Origin: Gemmatimonadota bacterium
GTDB lineage: Bacteria; 4572-55; J002
Assembly (NCBI GenBank): GCA_003697105.1
Contig: RFFQ01000113.1
Coordinates: forward strand, 1-64,000
Direction of reading: 5' to 3'
DNA length: 64,000 nucleotides
In this document: positions 163-8,295 of the stretch, piece by piece
Layout of the letters: each line of letters begins with the position of its first letter
How positions within the stretch are numbered: position 1 is the stretch's first letter
Position numbers and translations under genes: made by a program
The notes under the pieces: generated by a model
What the model was told of the DNA's origin: nothing
What the model saw: the letters and a program-made list of their open reading frames with translations, nothing else
Database searches by the model: none

Positions 163-2202
163 ATGGTAAAACGTGTATTGATACTATCCTTAGGACTCGT
201 ATGGCTCGGGGCAATGAGTTTGAATGCGGCACCCCGCACGGTGCTGGGCGAACTCCATACGGCGGATTGGTGAACCTATTGTCCCCACGCCGAAGCGGCG
301 CTCGACCAGTTGGTCGAGGAATACGGTCCCTCCGAATTTATTTACGTGGCTTATCACACCTCTGACCCCTACGCCATCCCCGATGGGGATGCTCGCTGGT
401 CTAGTTTTTACCACAGCACCGCCATCCCCGATACGTGGTTTGACGGCACAGAAAACGTACTCGGCGGATGGGATGGTTGCTACGACGATTATCTGGATAT
501 TTGCGAAGCTCATTGGGCCGAAGAAAGTCCTATTCTGCTTGAACTATTTGGCAGTATCACCGAAACGGAAGGACAAGTGACGGCTTCTGTCACACTAGAA
601 GAAACCATTGAAGACGATGCCAATATCCATTTTGAAGTGGTGGAAAATCATGTTATCGGGGCACGTCATTTTAATAATATGCTACGGCAAGTACTCGAAA
701 CCGAACCGTTAGGCATCTCTGAAGCCGGTGAAACCGCCACCTTTGAACGCACGTTCACGATGGATAGCGATTGGAATTATGAAAACATCGCGGTGGTTGT
801 TTTCATCCAGCGTCCTGCTACAGCAGACCCGCACAATGTCTATCAAGCCGCATATGGCACGATAGAAACACTGTTACCTCCCGCCGCTATCGAAGGCTAT
901 GTGACCGATTGTGATAGTGAACTGGGCTTGGATGTCACTTCCGTATATGCCGAAGGAACAAGTTTCACGACCACTACGGATGCCGATGGCTTTTATCACT
1001 TGAACTTAGAACCGGGAACGCATACCATTATTTTTGAGCGATTTGGTTATGATACGTATGCTCAGGAGGTCACGGTGGCGGAAGATGATTTGCTACCGGT
1101 CGATGTCTGTCTGAATGCGTTTGAGTCCTCCACGTTGACCGGTCAGGTGACGCAGTTGGAAGACAACGTACCGCTCCCCCATGTGCCGGTGGAATTGCTC
1201 AATGTCCCCATTGAACCCACCCTCACCGATGAAAACGGCAGATACACCTTCACGGTTCCGGGGGGATATACTTATGAGATTTCCGTTTATGCGGATGACC
1301 GGGAACCGCAAGTGGTGAGTGTGCCCGTTCCAGAAAATCAAGAAGTGGTCATGGATATTCCGATGCGGTTTGTGCAAAGTTTTGAAGCCAGTGATGGAGA
1401 TTTCACAGCAAACCGGTTGTGGGAGTGGGGCGCCGCAGACCCCAGTGGCGGTGCGGAAAACGCATATATGGGGCTGAATGTGTGGGTGACGGACATCAAC
1501 GGACCTTACCGTAGCAACACCCGGGCAGATTTAATCACCCCGGTTTATAGTCTTGTCGCCGTTGACGACGCCCAATTAGAATACGCCCATTGGCTGGATA
1601 CCAACGAAGGCTGGGATGGCTACAATGTCTCCATCTCCACGGATAACGGAGAGAACTGGACGCGCCTCGTGCCGGAAGGCGGCTATAATAGCAATGCGAT
1701 TGTGGGTCTTAGTGGTCAGGCGGGCTTCTCCGGTGATGCGAACACGTGGGAAATCGTACATTTTGACCTCAACGACTATCTGGGCGAGGTGATTCAGCTC
1801 CGGTTCCGGTTTGGTAGCACAAATAATAACCGCGACTTTTTAGGAGTGTGCATTGACTATTTCGATCTGCGACGCGAAGGCACCGTTGGTGTGGCTGAAG
1901 AACTCATGCCGGTTGCAGTGCCTGCTACCCTGGTACTGGAACAAAACATACCGAATCCATTTAACCCCATGACGGCGATCCGCTTTTCGATTCCATCGGA
2001 TCAATACATCAACCTGAGTATCTACGATGTGAATGGACGGTTGATCCAAACCTTACACGATGGCTGGCTTCAGGCAGGTAATTACCGCCATATGTGGAAC
2101 GGTACCAACCAACATGGGGTTGCGGTTTCCAGTGGGACATATCTCTATCGCCTGCACAGCAACACGGAAACGATTACCCGCCAGATGGTACTCCTCCGCT
2201 AA
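163..2202 (+). CDS. Candidate secreted selenoprotein (679 aa with Sec37): signal peptide, Omp28-like thioredoxin domain (UxxC), two carboxypeptidase-regulatory-like beta domains, MAM/immune-inhibitor-A-like jelly roll, C-terminal FlgD/T9SS-type domain
   Basis: SD AAGGAG at 150-155, ATG at 163, in frame with track ORF 310..2202. Translation MVKRVLILSLGLVWLGAMSLNA-APRTVLGELHTADW[TGA 271-273]TYCPHAEAALDQLVEEYG. Later YH..DP and AIPDTWFDG (cis-Pro loop); C-terminus LEQNIPNPFNPMTAIRF...IYDVNGRLIQTL...WNGTNQHG...SSGTYLYRL. Confidence 0.85.
288..318 (+). promoter_or_regulatory. Candidate bacterial SECIS hairpin(s) downstream of the in-frame UGA
   Basis: CGCCG-AAG-CGGCG (288-300) and CTCGACC-AGTT-GGTCGAG (301-318); apical loops lie about 19 and 34 nt after the UGA. 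Confidence 0.5.
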
Positions 2203-2298: not shown

Positions 2299-3723
2299 TT
2301 ATTTTTTCTTGGGGCGATAGACATGTGTGCTTTGCCCGAAGAAGACTTCCGCGGATTCCATCACCGTTTCTGAAAGTGTCGGGTGGGGATGGATGGTCAG
2401 TTTTAGGTCGGATGCCAGCGCCGCCATTTCTACGGCAAGGGTGCCTTCGGCGATCAATTCACCCGCCCCGGCGCCGACGATCCCGACGCCGAGAATACGC
2501 TCGGTCTCCGGTTCAATGATGAGTTTGGTCAGGCCATCTAGCCGGTCTAAGGTCAATGCCCGCCCGGAGGCGCCCCACGGGAATTTCGCTACTTCGATTG
2601 GGATACCCTTTTCCCGTGCTTCGGTTTCGGTCAGACCGCACCACGCCACTTCCGGGTCTGTGAAGACGACGCCCGGAATCGCCGCCGGATCAAAAATCAC
2701 TTTGTGCCCGGCGATTACTTCTACAGCGACCCGTCCCTCGTGAGAGGCTTTGTGTGCCAACATCGGTTGACCCACCAGATCACCAATGGCAAAAATGCGG
2801 GGTTCTGCCGTGCGAAGTTGTTGATCGACCTCTACAAATCCCTGATCATCCACTTTAATTCGGGTATTTTCGAGTCCGATACCGGTAGAATTGGGTTTGC
2901 GCCCGACGGAAACCAACGCCGCATCAAATTTTTCTTCGGTTTCTGATCCACCTTGCCCCTGCAACTTAACCACCAATCCATCAGACTCTTCAACCATGCG
3001 TATCACTTTGGTGTTTTTTAAGATACGGTTCAACTGGATTTTGAGCCGTTTTTCAAGGATTTTTACCAGATCGGAATCGGCGCCCGTGAGTAGCTGAGGT
3101 AGCATCTCCACCACCGTGACCTCAGACCCCAAGGCAGAATAAACCGTTGCCATTTCTAGCCCGATGTACCCGCCGCCAACGACGAGCAACCGCTTTGGGA
3201 TCGATTCCAGACGCAAGGCATCGGTAGAATCCCAAATGCGGGGGGAATCTGGGAAAATAGGAATACGCGCCGGTTGTGACCCCGTGGCTAAAATAGCGTA
3301 GTCAAAAAAGAGGGTCTCATCACTACCATCTTTACGCTCAACCAGCAAGGTATGGTCATTCAGTAGGGTGGCACGTCCCTGAATAAAATCGATGTGCCGC
3401 TGTTTGGAAAGTTGTCCCAACCCTCCGGTTAATTTGGTGACGACGCTTTCTTTCCAAGCACGTAATTGGTCAAGGTCGATCTGGGGTTCGGTAAAGGTAA
3501 CACCCCAATGGGCGGCTTCACGCGTTTCGCGAAGGAGTTTTGCCACATGCAGGAGTGCTTTGGAAGGGATACATCCCCGGTACAAGCAGACGCCGCCGGG
3601 GTTTTGTTCCAAATCGATTAACGTCACTTGCATACCCATATCTGCCGCTAAAAATGCCGCGGCGTATCCGCCGGGACCTCCGCCGATGACGACCAGTTGT
3701 GTCTTTTTGGTTTCATGTATCAT
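2299..3723 (-). CDS. lpdA: Dihydrolipoamide dehydrogenase (E3)
   Basis: GGGPGGY, GGVCLYRGCIPSK, GGGYIGLE, HPHPTLSE; start moved to MIHETKK (3723), just after the aceF stop. Confidence 0.96.
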   Translation of the reverse strand: MIHETKKTQLVVIGGGPGGYAAAFLAADMGMQVTLIDLEQNPGGVCLYRGCIPSKALLHVAKLLRETREAAHWGVTFTEPQIDLDQLRAWKESVVTKLTGGLGQLSKQRHIDFIQGRATLLNDHTLLVERKDGSDETLFFDYAILATGSQPARIPIFPDSPRIWDSTDALRLESIPKRLLVVGGGYIGLEMATVYSALGSEVTVVEMLPQLLTGADSDLVKILEKRLKIQLNRILKNTKVIRMVEESDGLVVKLQGQGGSETEEKFDAALVSVGRKPNSTGIGLENTRIKVDDQGFVEVDQQLRTAEPRIFAIGDLVGQPMLAHKASHEGRVAVEVIAGHKVIFDPAAIPGVVFTDPEVAWCGLTETEAREKGIPIEVAKFPWGASGRALTLDRLDGLTKLIIEPETERILGVGIVGAGAGELIAEGTLAVEMAALASDLKLTIHPHPTLSETVMESAEVFFGQSTHVYRPKKK

Positions 3724-3724
3724 G

Positions 3725-5434
3725 TTACCCCTCCAGTGCCAGCAAGAATGGTTGTTCCAACGCTTCCACAATCCAGCGCAAGAAACGCGCGGCATCCGCG
3801 CCATCAATTAACCGGTGATCATACGAGAGGGATAACGGCATCATCAGACGCGGTTGGAAGTCTCCCTCCACAAAAACCGGTTCGATAGTGGCACGGGAAA
3901 CGCCCAGAATAGCGACTTCCGGTGGATTGACTATCGGGGTGAAATAAGTACCGCCAATGCCGCCCAAATTACTGATGGAGAAGGTGCCACCCTGCATCTC
4001 GTCAAGGCTTAATTTCCGGTCTCGTGCCTTTTGGGAAAGTTCGGTCAATTCTACAGCAAGTTCAATAATGCTTTTTTGGTCCACATTTTTGATAACTGGT
4101 ACCAGCAAGCCGCGTTCGGTATCCACGGCGACCCCAATATGGTAATACGCTTTGTAGATAATCTCGTGATGTTCCATATCGAGGCTGGCATTGACTTTGG
4201 GGAACGCTTTTAAGGCGGAAGCCACAATTTTGAGTAAGATTGCGGTCATGGTTAGCTTTCCACCCGCGGCTTTTGCCCGTTCTCCGTATTTTTTGCGTAA
4301 TTTTTCCACCTGCGTAATATCTGCTTTATCGTGGTTTGTCACATGAGGAATCGTTGTCCACGCATAGCTTAAATGGGAAGCGGTTTTTTTGCGGACATTG
4401 TTCATTGCTTCTCGTCTGATCTCGCCCCATTTGGTGAAATCAGGTAGGGGTTCCATCGCCACGCCGGGTAATGGTCCCCCTGATTCTTTGAGCGCTTCAA
4501 ACTTTTTACTCATTTGTTTGACATAATTTTGCACGTCCAAAATTGAAATTCGTCCGCCGGGACCCGTCCCCGGCACTTTATTAATGTCCACTCCTAATTT
4601 GCGGGCAAAACCTCGGGTCGAGGGTGCTGCCGGCGCCAGTTTACGGGTAGGATCGAATCCGGAAGATTTCCGCTCTACCGGTAATTCGGGCGGTTTGGGG
4701 TAAATCACTTTTTCCGGCTGGGGTGGTTCATATACTGGCACAGATGGCTTTTTGGATTCCGCAGGGGGTGGCGGCACAAAACCCGGTGCAGGTTCTGCCG
4801 TATCTTCTGGAATATTTAAAGATTCCATGACCAACAACAATTGACCCACATGTACCGTCTCCCCTTCCTGAATGTGGAGTGATTTGACCACCCCGCTAGC
4901 GGGCGACGGGACTTCAAGCGTCGCTTTGTCCGTCTCAATTTCCAAAACGGGTTGATCGACTTCAACTTTATCACCCACTTGAACCAATACCCCAACAACA
5001 TCACCGGAAACCACATTTTCACCCAGTTCAGGCAGATAAAATTCAATAGTTTGCGGGGCTTGTTGCGGGATGTTAGCTGGTGGGGAGGACGCCGGTTGTT
5101 GCGATGGTGCCGGCGCTTTCGGGGTCTCTTCGGTGTTGGGTGAGGGTGGTGCCTCGGGCTGGGGACTTTCGGCGGTAGCTGCCGCTGACGGGTTTTCAGC
5201 CGGCTCAACTGTGAGAATCAATTGACCCACCTCTACCGAGTCATTCTCATTCACGTGTAGCGCCGTGATCGTCCCCGAAACCGTTGAAGGTACTTCTAAA
5301 GTGGCTTTATCGGTTTCAATCTCCAAAATGGGCTGATCGACTTCAATATGATCGCCCGGAGAGACAAAAATTTTCACAATATCGGCGGACTCGATGTTTT
5401 CACCGAGTTCAGGAAGTCTGAATTCTGTCACCAT
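3725..5434 (-). CDS. aceF: Dihydrolipoamide acetyltransferase (E2) with two lipoyl domains
   Basis: Two EIETDKATLEVPS lipoyl motifs, GTGPGGRI E3-binding region, DHRLIDGA catalytic motif. Confidence 0.95.
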   Translation of the reverse strand: MVTEFRLPELGENIESADIVKIFVSPGDHIEVDQPILEIETDKATLEVPSTVSGTITALHVNENDSVEVGQLILTVEPAENPSAAATAESPQPEAPPSPNTEETPKAPAPSQQPASSPPANIPQQAPQTIEFYLPELGENVVSGDVVGVLVQVGDKVEVDQPVLEIETDKATLEVPSPASGVVKSLHIQEGETVHVGQLLLVMESLNIPEDTAEPAPGFVPPPPAESKKPSVPVYEPPQPEKVIYPKPPELPVERKSSGFDPTRKLAPAAPSTRGFARKLGVDINKVPGTGPGGRISILDVQNYVKQMSKKFEALKESGGPLPGVAMEPLPDFTKWGEIRREAMNNVRKKTASHLSYAWTTIPHVTNHDKADITQVEKLRKKYGERAKAAGGKLTMTAILLKIVASALKAFPKVNASLDMEHHEIIYKAYYHIGVAVDTERGLLVPVIKNVDQKSIIELAVELTELSQKARDRKLSLDEMQGGTFSISNLGGIGGTYFTPIVNPPEVAILGVSRATIEPVFVEGDFQPRLMMPLSLSYDHRLIDGADAARFLRWIVEALEQPFLLALEG

Positions 5435-5628
5435 TGGCTATCTTCCTAAAAATTTGAGATGAGTTTTGTGAATTTTTTAAGTTTCTATGAGTTTATGCCG
5501 TCCATGAGTCCCGAAGTTGAACACCACCGGCGATGTTCGCAAAGTGGTTTCGACCTTTTGTTTGGAGTCTCCGGTATGGTCTCACCGAACGATAAACTCA
5601 GTATCTCTACTATTCATTACCCTGCTTA

Positions 5629-8295
5629 TTATGATAAAACCGGATCGGCTTTATCCGCATTGATGTTCAGATCATGGATGGCTTTTTCAACGACATCGGC
5701 GCCAATTTTTCCCTCGCGAGCGAGACCCGTCAAGGCGGCCACGACCACATAGCGATGATCGACCTCAAAGAAGTCTCGTAATGCCGCACGGGTATCGCTC
5801 CGCCCGAATCCATCGGTGCCGAGTGACATGAGGGGGCGGGGTAGCCAGCGCGCGATCATATCCGGGACTAATTTCATGTAATCACTTGCGGCGACAAACG
5901 GACCTTCGGTATCCCTGAGGAGTTCTTCCACATACGGTACTTTCCGCTCGGCGGTGGGATGTAACATGTTCCACCGTTCTGCTGCCAGAGCATCCCGGCG
6001 CAATTCTTTGTAACTGGTGACACTCCACACATCGGCGGCGACCCGATACTCTTCTGCCAAAATTTGCTGGGCTTTCAAGACCTCATTGAGAATTGTTCCA
6101 CTACCAAAGAGTTGTGCTTTTAGTTCCGCATCCTGATTTTCAGCGGCTTTCAACCGGTACATACCTTTCAAAATGCCTTCGCGAGACCCTTCGGGCATGG
6201 GCGGCATGGCGTAATTCTCGTTCATCACAGTGATGTAATAGAAGATGTCCTCCTGATTCACATACATCCGTTTGATACCCTCATGGATAATCACGGCCAA
6301 TTCATAAGCGTATGCTGGATCGTATGCCACCAGATTCGGCACGGTGGATGCCAATACATGACTATGCCCGTCCTGATGTTGTAATCCTTCGCCGTTTAAG
6401 GTTGTTCTTCCAGAAGTTGCTCCGAGCAAAAAGCCTTTACAGCGACTATCACCAGCAAGCCATGCTAAATCACCAATCCGTTGCAACCCGAACATGGAAT
6501 AAAAGATGTAAAATGGAATTGTATTGACCCCATGGTTGGCATAGGCGGTGCCGGCGGCGATAAACGACGACATAGAGCCGGCTTCCGTAATGCCTTCTTC
6601 CAAAATTTGCCCGTTGGTGGCTTCCTTGTAGTAAAGCAGACTGTCGGAATCGACCGGTTCATACACCTGCCCCAAGCTGGAATAAATACCGACTTGGCGG
6701 AACAGGGCTTCCATGCCAAACGTGCGGGCTTCGTCGGGCACAATGGGGACGATAAGTTTACCGATGTTCTTATCGCGGAGAAGTTTTGCCAAGAGCCGGA
6801 CAAAAACCATCGTGGTGGAGACTTCTCGCCCGTTCGTACCGGTTTTGAACTCTTCAAACACCGTTTCGGAAACCTCCCGTAAGGGGGGCACACTAATTGT
6901 CCGGGTCGGGACATATCCCCCCAATTTGGCACGCTGTTCTTTCAGATATTGGATTTCCTGACTATCTTCTGCCGGTTTGTAAAATGGGGCTTTTGCCACA
7001 TCTTCATCGGAAATGGGGATGCCAAAGCGGGTACGGAATTCCCGCAATTCCACTTCGTTCAGTTCTTTCTGTTGGTGAGTGACGTTGCGCCCTTCTCCAG
7101 CTTCACCTAACCCGTACCCTTTGATCGTTTTGGCGAGGATCACGGTCGGGCGGTCTTCCTGAGATACGGCGGCTTTGTAGGCGGCATACACTTTTTCGGG
7201 ATCATGCCCACCGCGCCGCATACGGACAATCTGTTCGTCGGAAACTTTGCGGAGCATCTCAACCAACTGTGGGTTGCCTCCGGAGACATGCTCTCGCACA
7301 TATCGTGCATCTTCCACGATAAATTTTTGGTAGTAGCCATCTACTAAGCTTTCCAGTTGTCGTGCCAATGCACCTTCGGTATCTTGGGCGAAGAGGGGGT
7401 CCCAATCGTTCCCCCAAATTACTTTGATAACATTCCAACCGGCGCCGCGGAAGATCGCCTCCAATTCTTGGATGATCTTCCCATTTCCACGCACGGGACC
7501 ATCCAGCCGTTGGAGATTACAATTGACCACGAAGATCAGGTTATTCAATCGTTCGCGAGAGGCGAGGGTGAGGGCGCCGAGTGCTTCCGGCTCGTCGGTT
7601 TCGCCATCACCTAAAAATGCCCAGACCTTTTGATCATCTTTGGGTTTTAACCCCCGATTTTCCATATACTTAATAAAACGGGCATGGTAAATTGCCGTGA
7701 TGGGACCTAATCCCATTGAGACGGTTGGGAATTGCCAAAAATCGGGCATCAACCACGGGTGGGGATAGGAGGGGACGCCCCCTTTTAACTCTTGCCGGAA
7801 ATTCAAAAGTTGTTCCTCACTCAATCGACCTTCCAAAAAGGCTCGGGCATAAATCCCCGGAGAGCCATGTCCCTGAAAGTAAATTTTATCTTGGGTACGG
7901 AAGAAATGATTGAACCCGACTTCATAAAGAGTGGCGGCAGAAGCATACGTGGAAATATGACCCCCAATGCCGTGAAAACGCATGTTGGCATTGACGACCA
8001 TCGCCATGGCGTTCCATCGAATAATACTTTTGATGCGCCGTTCAATCTCCCGACTGCCCGGGTAAGACGGTTGTTTTTCAACAGGAATCGTGTTGATGTA
8101 GGGCGTATTGGCAGAAAAGGGAAATCGAACCCCGGCACGTTGGGCGTGTGTTTTCAATTGCTCCAGCAGTTGGATCACTCGTTCTGAACCACTGTGCCGT
8201 AGCACATATTCCAACGAGTCAATCCATTCCTGAGTTTCAATGGCTTCCAAATCTGAATTCGTCGCGGTATAGAGGTGACGTTGGGTTTCACTCAT
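5629..8295 (-). CDS. aceE: Pyruvate dehydrogenase E1, homodimeric type
   Basis: 888 aa; GGHISTYAS, FPTVSMGLGP, GDGETDEPE...NCNLQRLDGP (TPP motif), GEGLQHQDG. Confidence 0.97.
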   Translation of the reverse strand: MSETQRHLYTATNSDLEAIETQEWIDSLEYVLRHSGSERVIQLLEQLKTHAQRAGVRFPFSANTPYINTIPVEKQPSYPGSREIERRIKSIIRWNAMAMVVNANMRFHGIGGHISTYASAATLYEVGFNHFFRTQDKIYFQGHGSPGIYARAFLEGRLSEEQLLNFRQELKGGVPSYPHPWLMPDFWQFPTVSMGLGPITAIYHARFIKYMENRGLKPKDDQKVWAFLGDGETDEPEALGALTLASRERLNNLIFVVNCNLQRLDGPVRGNGKIIQELEAIFRGAGWNVIKVIWGNDWDPLFAQDTEGALARQLESLVDGYYQKFIVEDARYVREHVSGGNPQLVEMLRKVSDEQIVRMRRGGHDPEKVYAAYKAAVSQEDRPTVILAKTIKGYGLGEAGEGRNVTHQQKELNEVELREFRTRFGIPISDEDVAKAPFYKPAEDSQEIQYLKEQRAKLGGYVPTRTISVPPLREVSETVFEEFKTGTNGREVSTTMVFVRLLAKLLRDKNIGKLIVPIVPDEARTFGMEALFRQVGIYSSLGQVYEPVDSDSLLYYKEATNGQILEEGITEAGSMSSFIAAGTAYANHGVNTIPFYIFYSMFGLQRIGDLAWLAGDSRCKGFLLGATSGRTTLNGEGLQHQDGHSHVLASTVPNLVAYDPAYAYELAVIIHEGIKRMYVNQEDIFYYITVMNENYAMPPMPEGSREGILKGMYRLKAAENQDAELKAQLFGSGTILNEVLKAQQILAEEYRVAADVWSVTSYKELRRDALAAERWNMLHPTAERKVPYVEELLRDTEGPFVAASDYMKLVPDMIARWLPRPLMSLGTDGFGRSDTRAALRDFFEVDHRYVVVAALTGLAREGKIGADVVEKAIHDLNINADKADPVLS

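Follow-up and report, generated by a model that had tools for sequence, protein, structure and literature searches.

This report concerns a gene at the start of a 64,000-nucleotide stretch of DNA (the window: positions 1 to 64,000, forward strand, of contig RFFQ01000113.1, assembly GCA_003697105.1) from a Gemmatimonadota bacterium. The gene lies at 163-2202 and is read as encoding a 679-residue selenoprotein that is exported through the general secretory translocon and a type IX secretion system (T9SS) and carries out thiol-disulfide exchange outside the cell, an explanation to which we assign a probability of about 0.85. Comparison of related sequences indicates that the UGA at 271-273 is very probably decoded as selenocysteine (Sec, U). 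The features of the gene are:

151-155, + strand: Shine-Dalgarno sequence AGGAG, read from the sequence, with a 7-nt spacing to ATG163
163-2202, + strand: complete reading frame of the selenoprotein, with 679 codons and a TAA stop and interrupted by a single TGA (translation with TGA read as U; profile match)
163-231, + strand: putative signal peptide, residues ~1-23 (MVKRVLILSLGLVWLGAMSLNAA), basic-hydrophobic, cleavage site judged by eye
235-867, + strand: HBP35/Omp28-like domain, with a thioredoxin fold at residues ~25-118 and a β-sandwich at ~120-235 (AlphaFold2 (AF2), Foldseek, PDB profile)
271-273, + strand: TGA, probable Sec37, first residue of UxxC; the column is Cys in homologues and aligns with HBP35 C48
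280-282, + strand: TGT, Cys40, predicted resolving Cys of UxxC; unchanged throughout alignments A1 and A3 and aligned with HBP35 C51
288-318, + strand: candidate selenocysteine insertion sequence (SECIS), consisting in the computed folds of the hairpin CGCCG-AAG-CGGCG (288-300) and the 7-bp hairpin CUCGACC-AGUU-GGUCGAG (301-318)
310-312, + strand: TTG chosen as the start by open reading frame (ORF) callers, without a Shine-Dalgarno sequence and inside the candidate SECIS loop
889-1356, + strand: two CarboxypepD_reg (transthyretin-like) β-sandwiches, residues 243-315 and 321-398 (PF13620, 79.5 bits; PF13715, 67.4 bits)
1411-1887, + strand: MAM-like/choice-of-anchor-J β-sandwich, residues ~417-575 (InhA-like MAM, PF20773, 38.6 bits)
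1951-2199, + strand: C-terminal sorting domain, residues 597-679, an Ig-like β-sandwich (TIGR04183, PF13860, structural model, Foldseek)

The mechanically identified ORF runs from TTG310 to 2202 and specifies 630 amino acids. Translation of the same frame from ATG163 with TGA read as U yields 679 residues followed by TAA2200-2202, and the sole internal stop is TGA271-273, which becomes U37 in the context HTADW-U-TYCP. The N-terminal stretch reads MVKRVLILSLGLVWLGAMSLNAAPRTVLGELHTADW-U-TYCPHAEAALDQL, and the Sec-containing peptide at U37 is HTADW-U-TYCPHAEAALDQLVEEYGPSEF. A prior reading of the DNA made without database searches (the original prediction) had proposed this longer frame, and its elements are borne out. 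AGGAG is correctly spaced from an ATG that is in frame with the ORF at 310, exactly one non-standard step is needed to reach 679 residues, and the N-terminus from ATG163 has, by eye, the basic-hydrophobic character of a signal peptide that is missing from a protein begun at TTG310. Alignments show similar basic-hydrophobic N-termini upstream of the U or C codon in paralogues and homologues, and profile positions 1-25 are common to the homologues. The profile match to the gene spans 163-894 (318.6 bits) and contains 1 TGA. The databases annotate a different gene, in which UGA37 terminates a 36-residue peptide and a separate 630-residue protein starts at TTG310. This is the choice made by ORF callers, and it is very improbable. 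TTG310 has no Shine-Dalgarno sequence and is located in a hairpin loop, its product would have neither the signal peptide needed for T9SS nor β-strand 1 and the thioredoxin active site, and conservation crosses the TGA in all homologues.

The host genome encodes the machinery for Sec insertion. All four genes named as a check in the original prediction score above their curated cut-offs: selA (585 bits), selB (383.8 bits), selD (355.9 bits) and selC, the gene for tRNA-Sec (63 bits), whose anticodon was identified as TCA by ARAGORN. SelD is a selenoprotein too, its frame carrying a TGA at the ACAG-U site (contig C12:941-1864, minus strand, locus L010). A hairpin, CCAGG-GGU-CCUGG, is visible by eye starting ~16 nt after the selD TGA and is absent from the computed minimum free energy fold.

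Seven copies of the HBP35/Omp28-like domain are found in the host genome, and the column occupied by U37 is TGA in four, Cys in two and Asn in one. The active sites of the TGA forms are WUTYC (the 163-2202 gene), WUVYC, WUATC and TUPVC; those of the Cys forms are WCQNC and TCPPC, and the Asn form has GNELC. A comparable signal peptide stands directly upstream of the domain in 6 of the 7 copies; in the WCQNC copy the domain is near the C-terminus, behind Ig-like domains. A nine-member family profile was then used in a six-frame survey (E ≤ 1e-12) of 301 genomes, a sample of relatives and not a random one. The domain was found in 39 genomes with 101 matches, of which 46 contain one TGA, 1 contains a TAA and 54 contain no stop. 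The TGA falls in the U37 column in all 46 TGA-bearing matches, including the four in the host genome; the 42 outside it come from 20 other genomes and always form UxxC. SelA was found in 21/21 genomes with TGA forms, in 8/18 domain-containing genomes without a TGA form and in 134/301 overall. The co-occurrence of selA and TGA forms has a Fisher p = 7e-5, a value computed over related genomes that are not independent.

The corresponding residue is ordinarily Cys. Cys-x-x-Cys occupies both columns in 155 of 174 aligned domains (from the 150 best of 19,913 matching representative proteins), the usual homologue motif is T-A-T-W-C-x-Y-C-P, and the WCxxCP motif quoted in the original prediction is thus the family consensus. 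Sequence is conserved on both sides of the TGA in comparisons of 9, 43 and 42 sequences, so that both the Cys at position 37 and the flanking conservation proposed there as checks are present in the homologues. These data bear on the possibility that a TGC or TGT Cys codon mutated to TGA and left a dead or dying gene. The TGA is one base away from either codon and most family members in the databases have Cys, but a nonsense pseudogene is highly unlikely given that TGA stands at the same column in the four host copies and 42 homologues from 20 other genomes and nowhere else in the domain, that selA is in every genome with TGA forms, and that the frame is otherwise open across 679 codons. The combination of Cys-containing relatives with no other TGA-bearing homologues, which the original prediction had listed as damaging to its case, is not what the survey found.

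The TGA is also present in two other assemblies. Logan assemblies of runs X1 and X2, made from two samples of a single hot-spring metagenome study, each contain the stretch 100-2300 whole in one contig, at word depths of 18.8 and 25. These sequences are contigs and not raw reads; compared with the window, they are changed only at 714, 879 and 1405 and are identical to it at 271-273. The differences at 714 and 879 are third-codon and synonymous, and the one at 1405 changes Thr to Ala; this pattern of population variants also argues against a pseudogene. Two more near-identical database copies from other assemblies (P0158 and P0159) carry the Thr to Ala change and begin at the TTG310 codon, as would be expected if the TGA were in those copies as well. 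Elsewhere in the host genome TGA serves as a normal stop: of 1199 open frames with 400 or more codons, 309 (26%) end in it, and so does the paralogue on contig C24, whose tail is conserved up to the residue before the stop. An error of sequencing or assembly, or the genome-wide reassignment of TGA to an ordinary amino acid, has nothing in its favor beyond its bare possibility. Against an error, the TGA recurs in the two Logan assemblies and the two database copies have the same TTG start, and the 26% of long frames ending in TGA contradicts reassignment; of all the alternatives this is the least credible. Taken jointly, the evidence leaves in practice no room for a pseudogene, a misassembly or a reassigned codon.

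Public collections hold the gene in the 630-residue form starting at TTG310 (P0003), the truncation by standard pipelines that had been foreseen, and one stored truncated form is named 'carboxypeptidase regulatory-like domain-containing protein, partial'. A word-index protein search returned the window's own truncated protein as its sole match, and two scans of genome contigs, in a genome set that represents the host phylum with 3 genomes only, returned no close orthologue. A metagenome scan, in which one of the two search patterns ended in Cys, gave 30 loci, all distant (20-44% identity).

The candidate SECIS follows the UGA closely. Its apical loop is ~34 nt after the UGA, and the loop of the 301-318 hairpin contains TTG310. 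Bacterial SECIS elements have an accepted UGA-to-loop distance of roughly 16-37 nt, and the best single hairpin places its loop +15 to +36 nt from the UGA in 45 of the 46 Sec forms. The 301-318 hairpin is kept in the three closest paralogues, where one compensatory pair varies between C-G, U-A and G-C; the base that changes is at a wobble position on one side and alters the amino acid on the other. Of all parts of the case for Sec, the SECIS is the least secure.

The N-terminal domain of the protein was modeled with AF2 using residues 1-245 and a 43-sequence alignment, with a predicted local distance difference test score (pLDDT) of 93.2. The model has a strand at 27-33, places W36-U37 at the N-terminus of a helix at 40-54, continues as a thioredoxin fold to ~118 and then forms a β-sandwich. 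It agrees with the Omp28/thioredoxin domain that had been predicted. The top Foldseek match is Porphyromonas gingivalis HBP35 (5y1a; E 6.3e-14, TMq 0.74), followed by Atu2684/DUF1223 (2axo; E 4.3e-10), the Omp28 domain (2r2c; E 9.4e-5) and plain thioredoxins. A profile alignment to PDB sequences sets the family motif TATWCgyCP on TAEWCGYCP of HBP35, so that U37 falls on C48 and C40 on C51. Pro89 is invariant in alignments A1 and A3 and probably corresponds to the cis-proline position of thioredoxin folds. Comparison shows the predicted Sec to occupy the place of the attacking Cys in a CxxC thioredoxin-fold site.

The remainder of the protein consists of β domains, and the accessory β domains and FlgD/T9SS-type tail of the original prediction are accounted for by the two CarboxypepD_reg domains, the MAM-like domain and a tail that exceeds the TIGR04183 cut-off. 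The accessory types are kinds found in secreted peptidases; the MAM-like domain also matches NF038128 at 23.5 bits, under the cut-off of 30. The tail scores 28.9 bits against TIGR04183 (T9SS type A sorting; cut-off 23) and passes FlgD_ig PF13860 with 35.2 bits. It is 33-58% identical to 20/20 other host-genome tails with which it was aligned, and the tails share the pattern PNPFNP...IYD..G.L..TL...AG...W.G....G..V.SG.Y.YRL. The AF2 model of the tail (pLDDT 92.4) is an Ig-like sandwich with Foldseek matches to FlgD (2.8e-4), PorU (7e-4), PorZ (9.7e-4) and a T9SS-bound substrate tail (6.9e-3). The host genome was searched for the T9SS components PorU, SprA and PorV. PorU (649.9 bits) and SprA (508.6 bits summed) are both above their cut-offs. 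In addition to PorU and a PorU-like paralogue on contig C46, ~50 further sites across the genome match the PorU model through its C-terminal region, and the 20 aligned tails are among these sites. These matches suggest a large T9SS secretome in the lineage. By analogy with known T9SS substrates, sorting of the 163-2202 protein to the surface is likely.

HBP35 is the best structural match, and the profile alignment to it reaches across the entire domain and into the tail. Both proteins pass from a signal peptide to a thioredoxin fold plus β-sandwich and on to a T9SS C-terminal domain. HBP35 differs in having Cys for Sec, in its length of 344 residues, in the absence of the transthyretin-like and MAM-like inserts and in an identity of only ~16%. 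In the part of the source available, HBP35 is described as a T9SS surface protein that reduces insulin faster than Escherichia coli thioredoxin and is inactive as C48S/C51S (Shoji et al. 2010, PMC2907840), and an earlier study cited there reports that hbp35 complements an E. coli dsbA mutant.

The proposed mechanism starts with translation at ATG163, as sequence comparison suggests. SelB and Sec-tRNA(Sec) would read UGA271-273 as Sec, directed by a downstream hairpin for which 288-318 is the candidate. By analogy, the signal peptide would lead the chain through the general secretory translocon to the periplasm, T9SS would recognize the C-terminal Ig-like domain and carry the protein out to the surface, where PorU would cut off the tail and anchor or release the protein. 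Sec37 would be the attacking residue of the HBP35/Omp28-type domain and Cys40 the resolving residue. The reaction is most likely thiol-disulfide (selenylsulfide) exchange on extracellular substrates, as performed by HBP35 in vitro. Opening the disulfides of extracellular protein substrates is one reasonable job for the protein. Its accessory domains resemble those of secreted peptidases, and the transthyretin-like pair and the MAM-like domain may act as spacers or binding modules. Selenium might be used because a selenol stays reactive and recovers, or is regenerated, more easily after oxidation outside the cell. We know of no dedicated extracellular reductase.

Several results weigh against this account. 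The Logan check relies on contigs from one study, possibly the window's own source, and is weaker than raw reads. The Rfam scan of 100-600 with E values up to 10 detected neither a SECIS nor any other family. Folding downstream of the codon does not separate 46 Sec from 22 Cys forms (mean z -0.65 versus -0.25, Mann-Whitney p = 0.15), and the best hairpin shows a weak contrast (-11.2 kcal/mol in Sec forms versus -9.7 kcal/mol in Cys forms, p = 0.044). The Pfam Omp28 score (PF11551) of 27.3 bits is below the gathering cut-off of 34.9, which 5 of the 6 paralogues pass (35.1-58.9 bits; the remaining one has 31.9). The tail reaches 24.8 bits against Por_Secre_tail PF18962, under the cut-off of 27, and its fold resembles FlgD about as well as it resembles T9SS tails. 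PorV-like matches in the host genome peak at 124 bits versus a cut-off of 250. We know of no surface electron donor, and to our knowledge the natural role of HBP35 is tied to heme use.

The last points would also fit an exported selenoprotein whose UxxC binds a ligand such as heme, a metal or a sulfur species, or one that works in the periplasm, whether ahead of surface sorting or with no such sorting at all. This alternative is unlikely, and is the strongest of the rivals. Ligand binding agrees with the lack of a surface reductant known to us. It also agrees with the GNELC paralogue, whose conservation without the first Cys indicates that the scaffold is useful without the Cys pair, and with the available part of the HBP35 study, in which the protein binds hemin and is required for growth when hemin is scarce (PMC2907840). 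Against it, a Sec/Cys pair placed where helix 1 of a thioredoxin fold begins, combined with the invariant Pro89, is the arrangement seen in catalytic thiol oxidoreductases, and insulin reduction by HBP35 depends on its two Cys. A periplasmic role has the weak PorV match and a TlpA-like periplasmic redoxin inside the paralogue cluster on its side, and the T9SS-type tail, PorU and SprA against it. Thiol-disulfide exchange by a surface-sorted selenoprotein remains our preferred reading.

The paralogue cluster lies on host contig C186:33505-45709 (locus L045:3506-15710) and comprises five Omp28/HBP35-like genes: a Cys form with Big_7 Ig domains, the Asn form, a pair of Sec forms and a second Cys form. 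Between them stand genes for a TlpA/AhpC-type periplasmic redoxin and for a DUF6029 porin-like protein, and the last gene of the cluster has the domain order of the 163-2202 gene with Cys for Sec. Several Sec paralogues, often adjacent, also occur in genomes G037, G096, G154 and G117, so that multiplication of the Sec forms is not confined to the host genome. G037 has 7 TGA forms, four of them on contig C14, and there are three consecutive TGA forms on G096 C6 and three on G154 C48. The single TAA match belongs to G120, where the family member has an in-frame TAA instead of TGA and the selA match holds 2 TGA and 1 TAG, which may point to a decaying Sec system in this genome or to a poor assembly.

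The 163-2202 gene is of a kind already known and is a divergent multidomain relative that falls outside the curated model NF045500. The novelty implied by the original prediction is therefore not supported: the NF045500/GOS_C family has been on record since 2008, and TGA forms are common (46 of 101 matches). A 2026 review table, in the portion available, equates the NF045500 'Omp28-related selenoprotein' with 'Hypothetical protein GOS_C', a UxxC protein (PMC13188914). The accessible text of Zhang and Gladyshev 2008 describes GOS_C from ocean reads, counting 74 sequences with Sec and 312 Cys homologues, and gives it a Trx-like fold but no function (PMC2398784). The 163-2202 protein is homologous to NF045500 across residues 29-239 (positions 43-273 of the model; 73.7 bits, E 1.7e-20) and shares with the family a single Sec in UxxC, the Trx-like fold and many Cys homologues; the presumed equivalence of the Sec columns is judged from the UxxC motif that both have and from the extent of the match. 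The score of 73.7 bits versus a cut-off of 200 denotes homology, not equivalog membership, and the 163-2202 protein adds ~440 residues of β domains and a T9SS-type tail. The 200-bit cut-off was reached by 0/6 matches in the host genome and by no match in five other genomes, including genomes with Sec forms. Dozens of tandem ~40-residue repeats on G002 contig C45:75597-81309 match NF045500 positions ~270-316, and the C-terminal part of the model seems because of this to be a common repeat module that is not specific to selenoproteins.

Two other families are related in part. The β-sandwich half of the domain matches P. gingivalis Omp28 (PF11551, 2r2c, NF033782) with E 9.4e-5, whereas the 163-2202 protein has 36 bits against the NF033782 cut-off of 150 and a signal peptide without a lipoprotein Cys. 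DUF1223/Atu2684 (2axo) is the second-best structural and profile match and shares the E-x-F-T-x-x-x-C-x-x-C-P start; it is a small, single-domain protein without a sorting tail, and its sequence alignment is limited to the first ~100 profile positions.

Exported or outer-membrane selenoproteins are already on record, so that export by itself is no surprise in a selenoprotein. They include a TonB-dependent receptor and an MtrB/PioB-type barrel in the available portion of the review (PMC13188914), and SaoB and SaoC, which a preprint by Haft describes as selenoproteins exposed to the extracellular milieu. Full-text literature searches returned no paper joining 'Omp28' with 'selenoprotein' or 'selenocysteine' with 'HBP35'; 'selenoprotein' with 'type IX secretion' gave only an unrelated paper and 'Omp28-related' unrelated papers only. 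They yielded no paper on the HBP35 link, T9SS sorting or Sec-form frequency of this family, and no T9SS-exported selenoprotein turned up. These aspects, namely the HBP35 link, the T9SS sorting, four Sec paralogues in one genome and the high Sec share in the sampled genomes, may be new.

The practical consequence concerns annotation. As stored, the gene, the three other Sec copies in its genome and dozens of homologues are N-terminally truncated and lack the signal peptide and the active site. NF045500, the only curated model, misses every member tried, and a broader model would recover them. The tie to HBP35, with its crystal structure and proven thioredoxin activity, gives the function-unknown GOS_C family a testable function. 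A wider and rather doubtful proposal, which we advance tentatively, is that the HBP35/Omp28-like UxxC proteins rank among the larger bacterial selenoprotein groups so far overlooked and are the first with members sorted by T9SS, with surface selenols forming an extracellular redox layer that has no dedicated reductase. If this is true, a hot-spring bacterium with four Sec and three non-Sec paralogues displays selenols on its cell surface, and the redox layer could open protein disulfides or react with environmental sulfur species.

The selenoprotein gene sits at the extreme start of the contig, and its upstream context is outside the sequence. The downstream neighbors lie on the opposite strand and converge on it; they encode E3, E2 and E1 of pyruvate dehydrogenase, are unrelated to it and provide no functional context. 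The boundary and the neighboring genes are:

2223-2258, both strands: strong two-way intrinsic terminator between the selenoprotein gene and the convergent pyruvate dehydrogenase genes
2299-8295, - strand: pyruvate dehydrogenase genes, with E3 at 2302-3807, E2 at 3728-5434 and E1 at 5632-8295

The E3 and E2 genes overlap by ~80 nt when counted from their first possible start codons.

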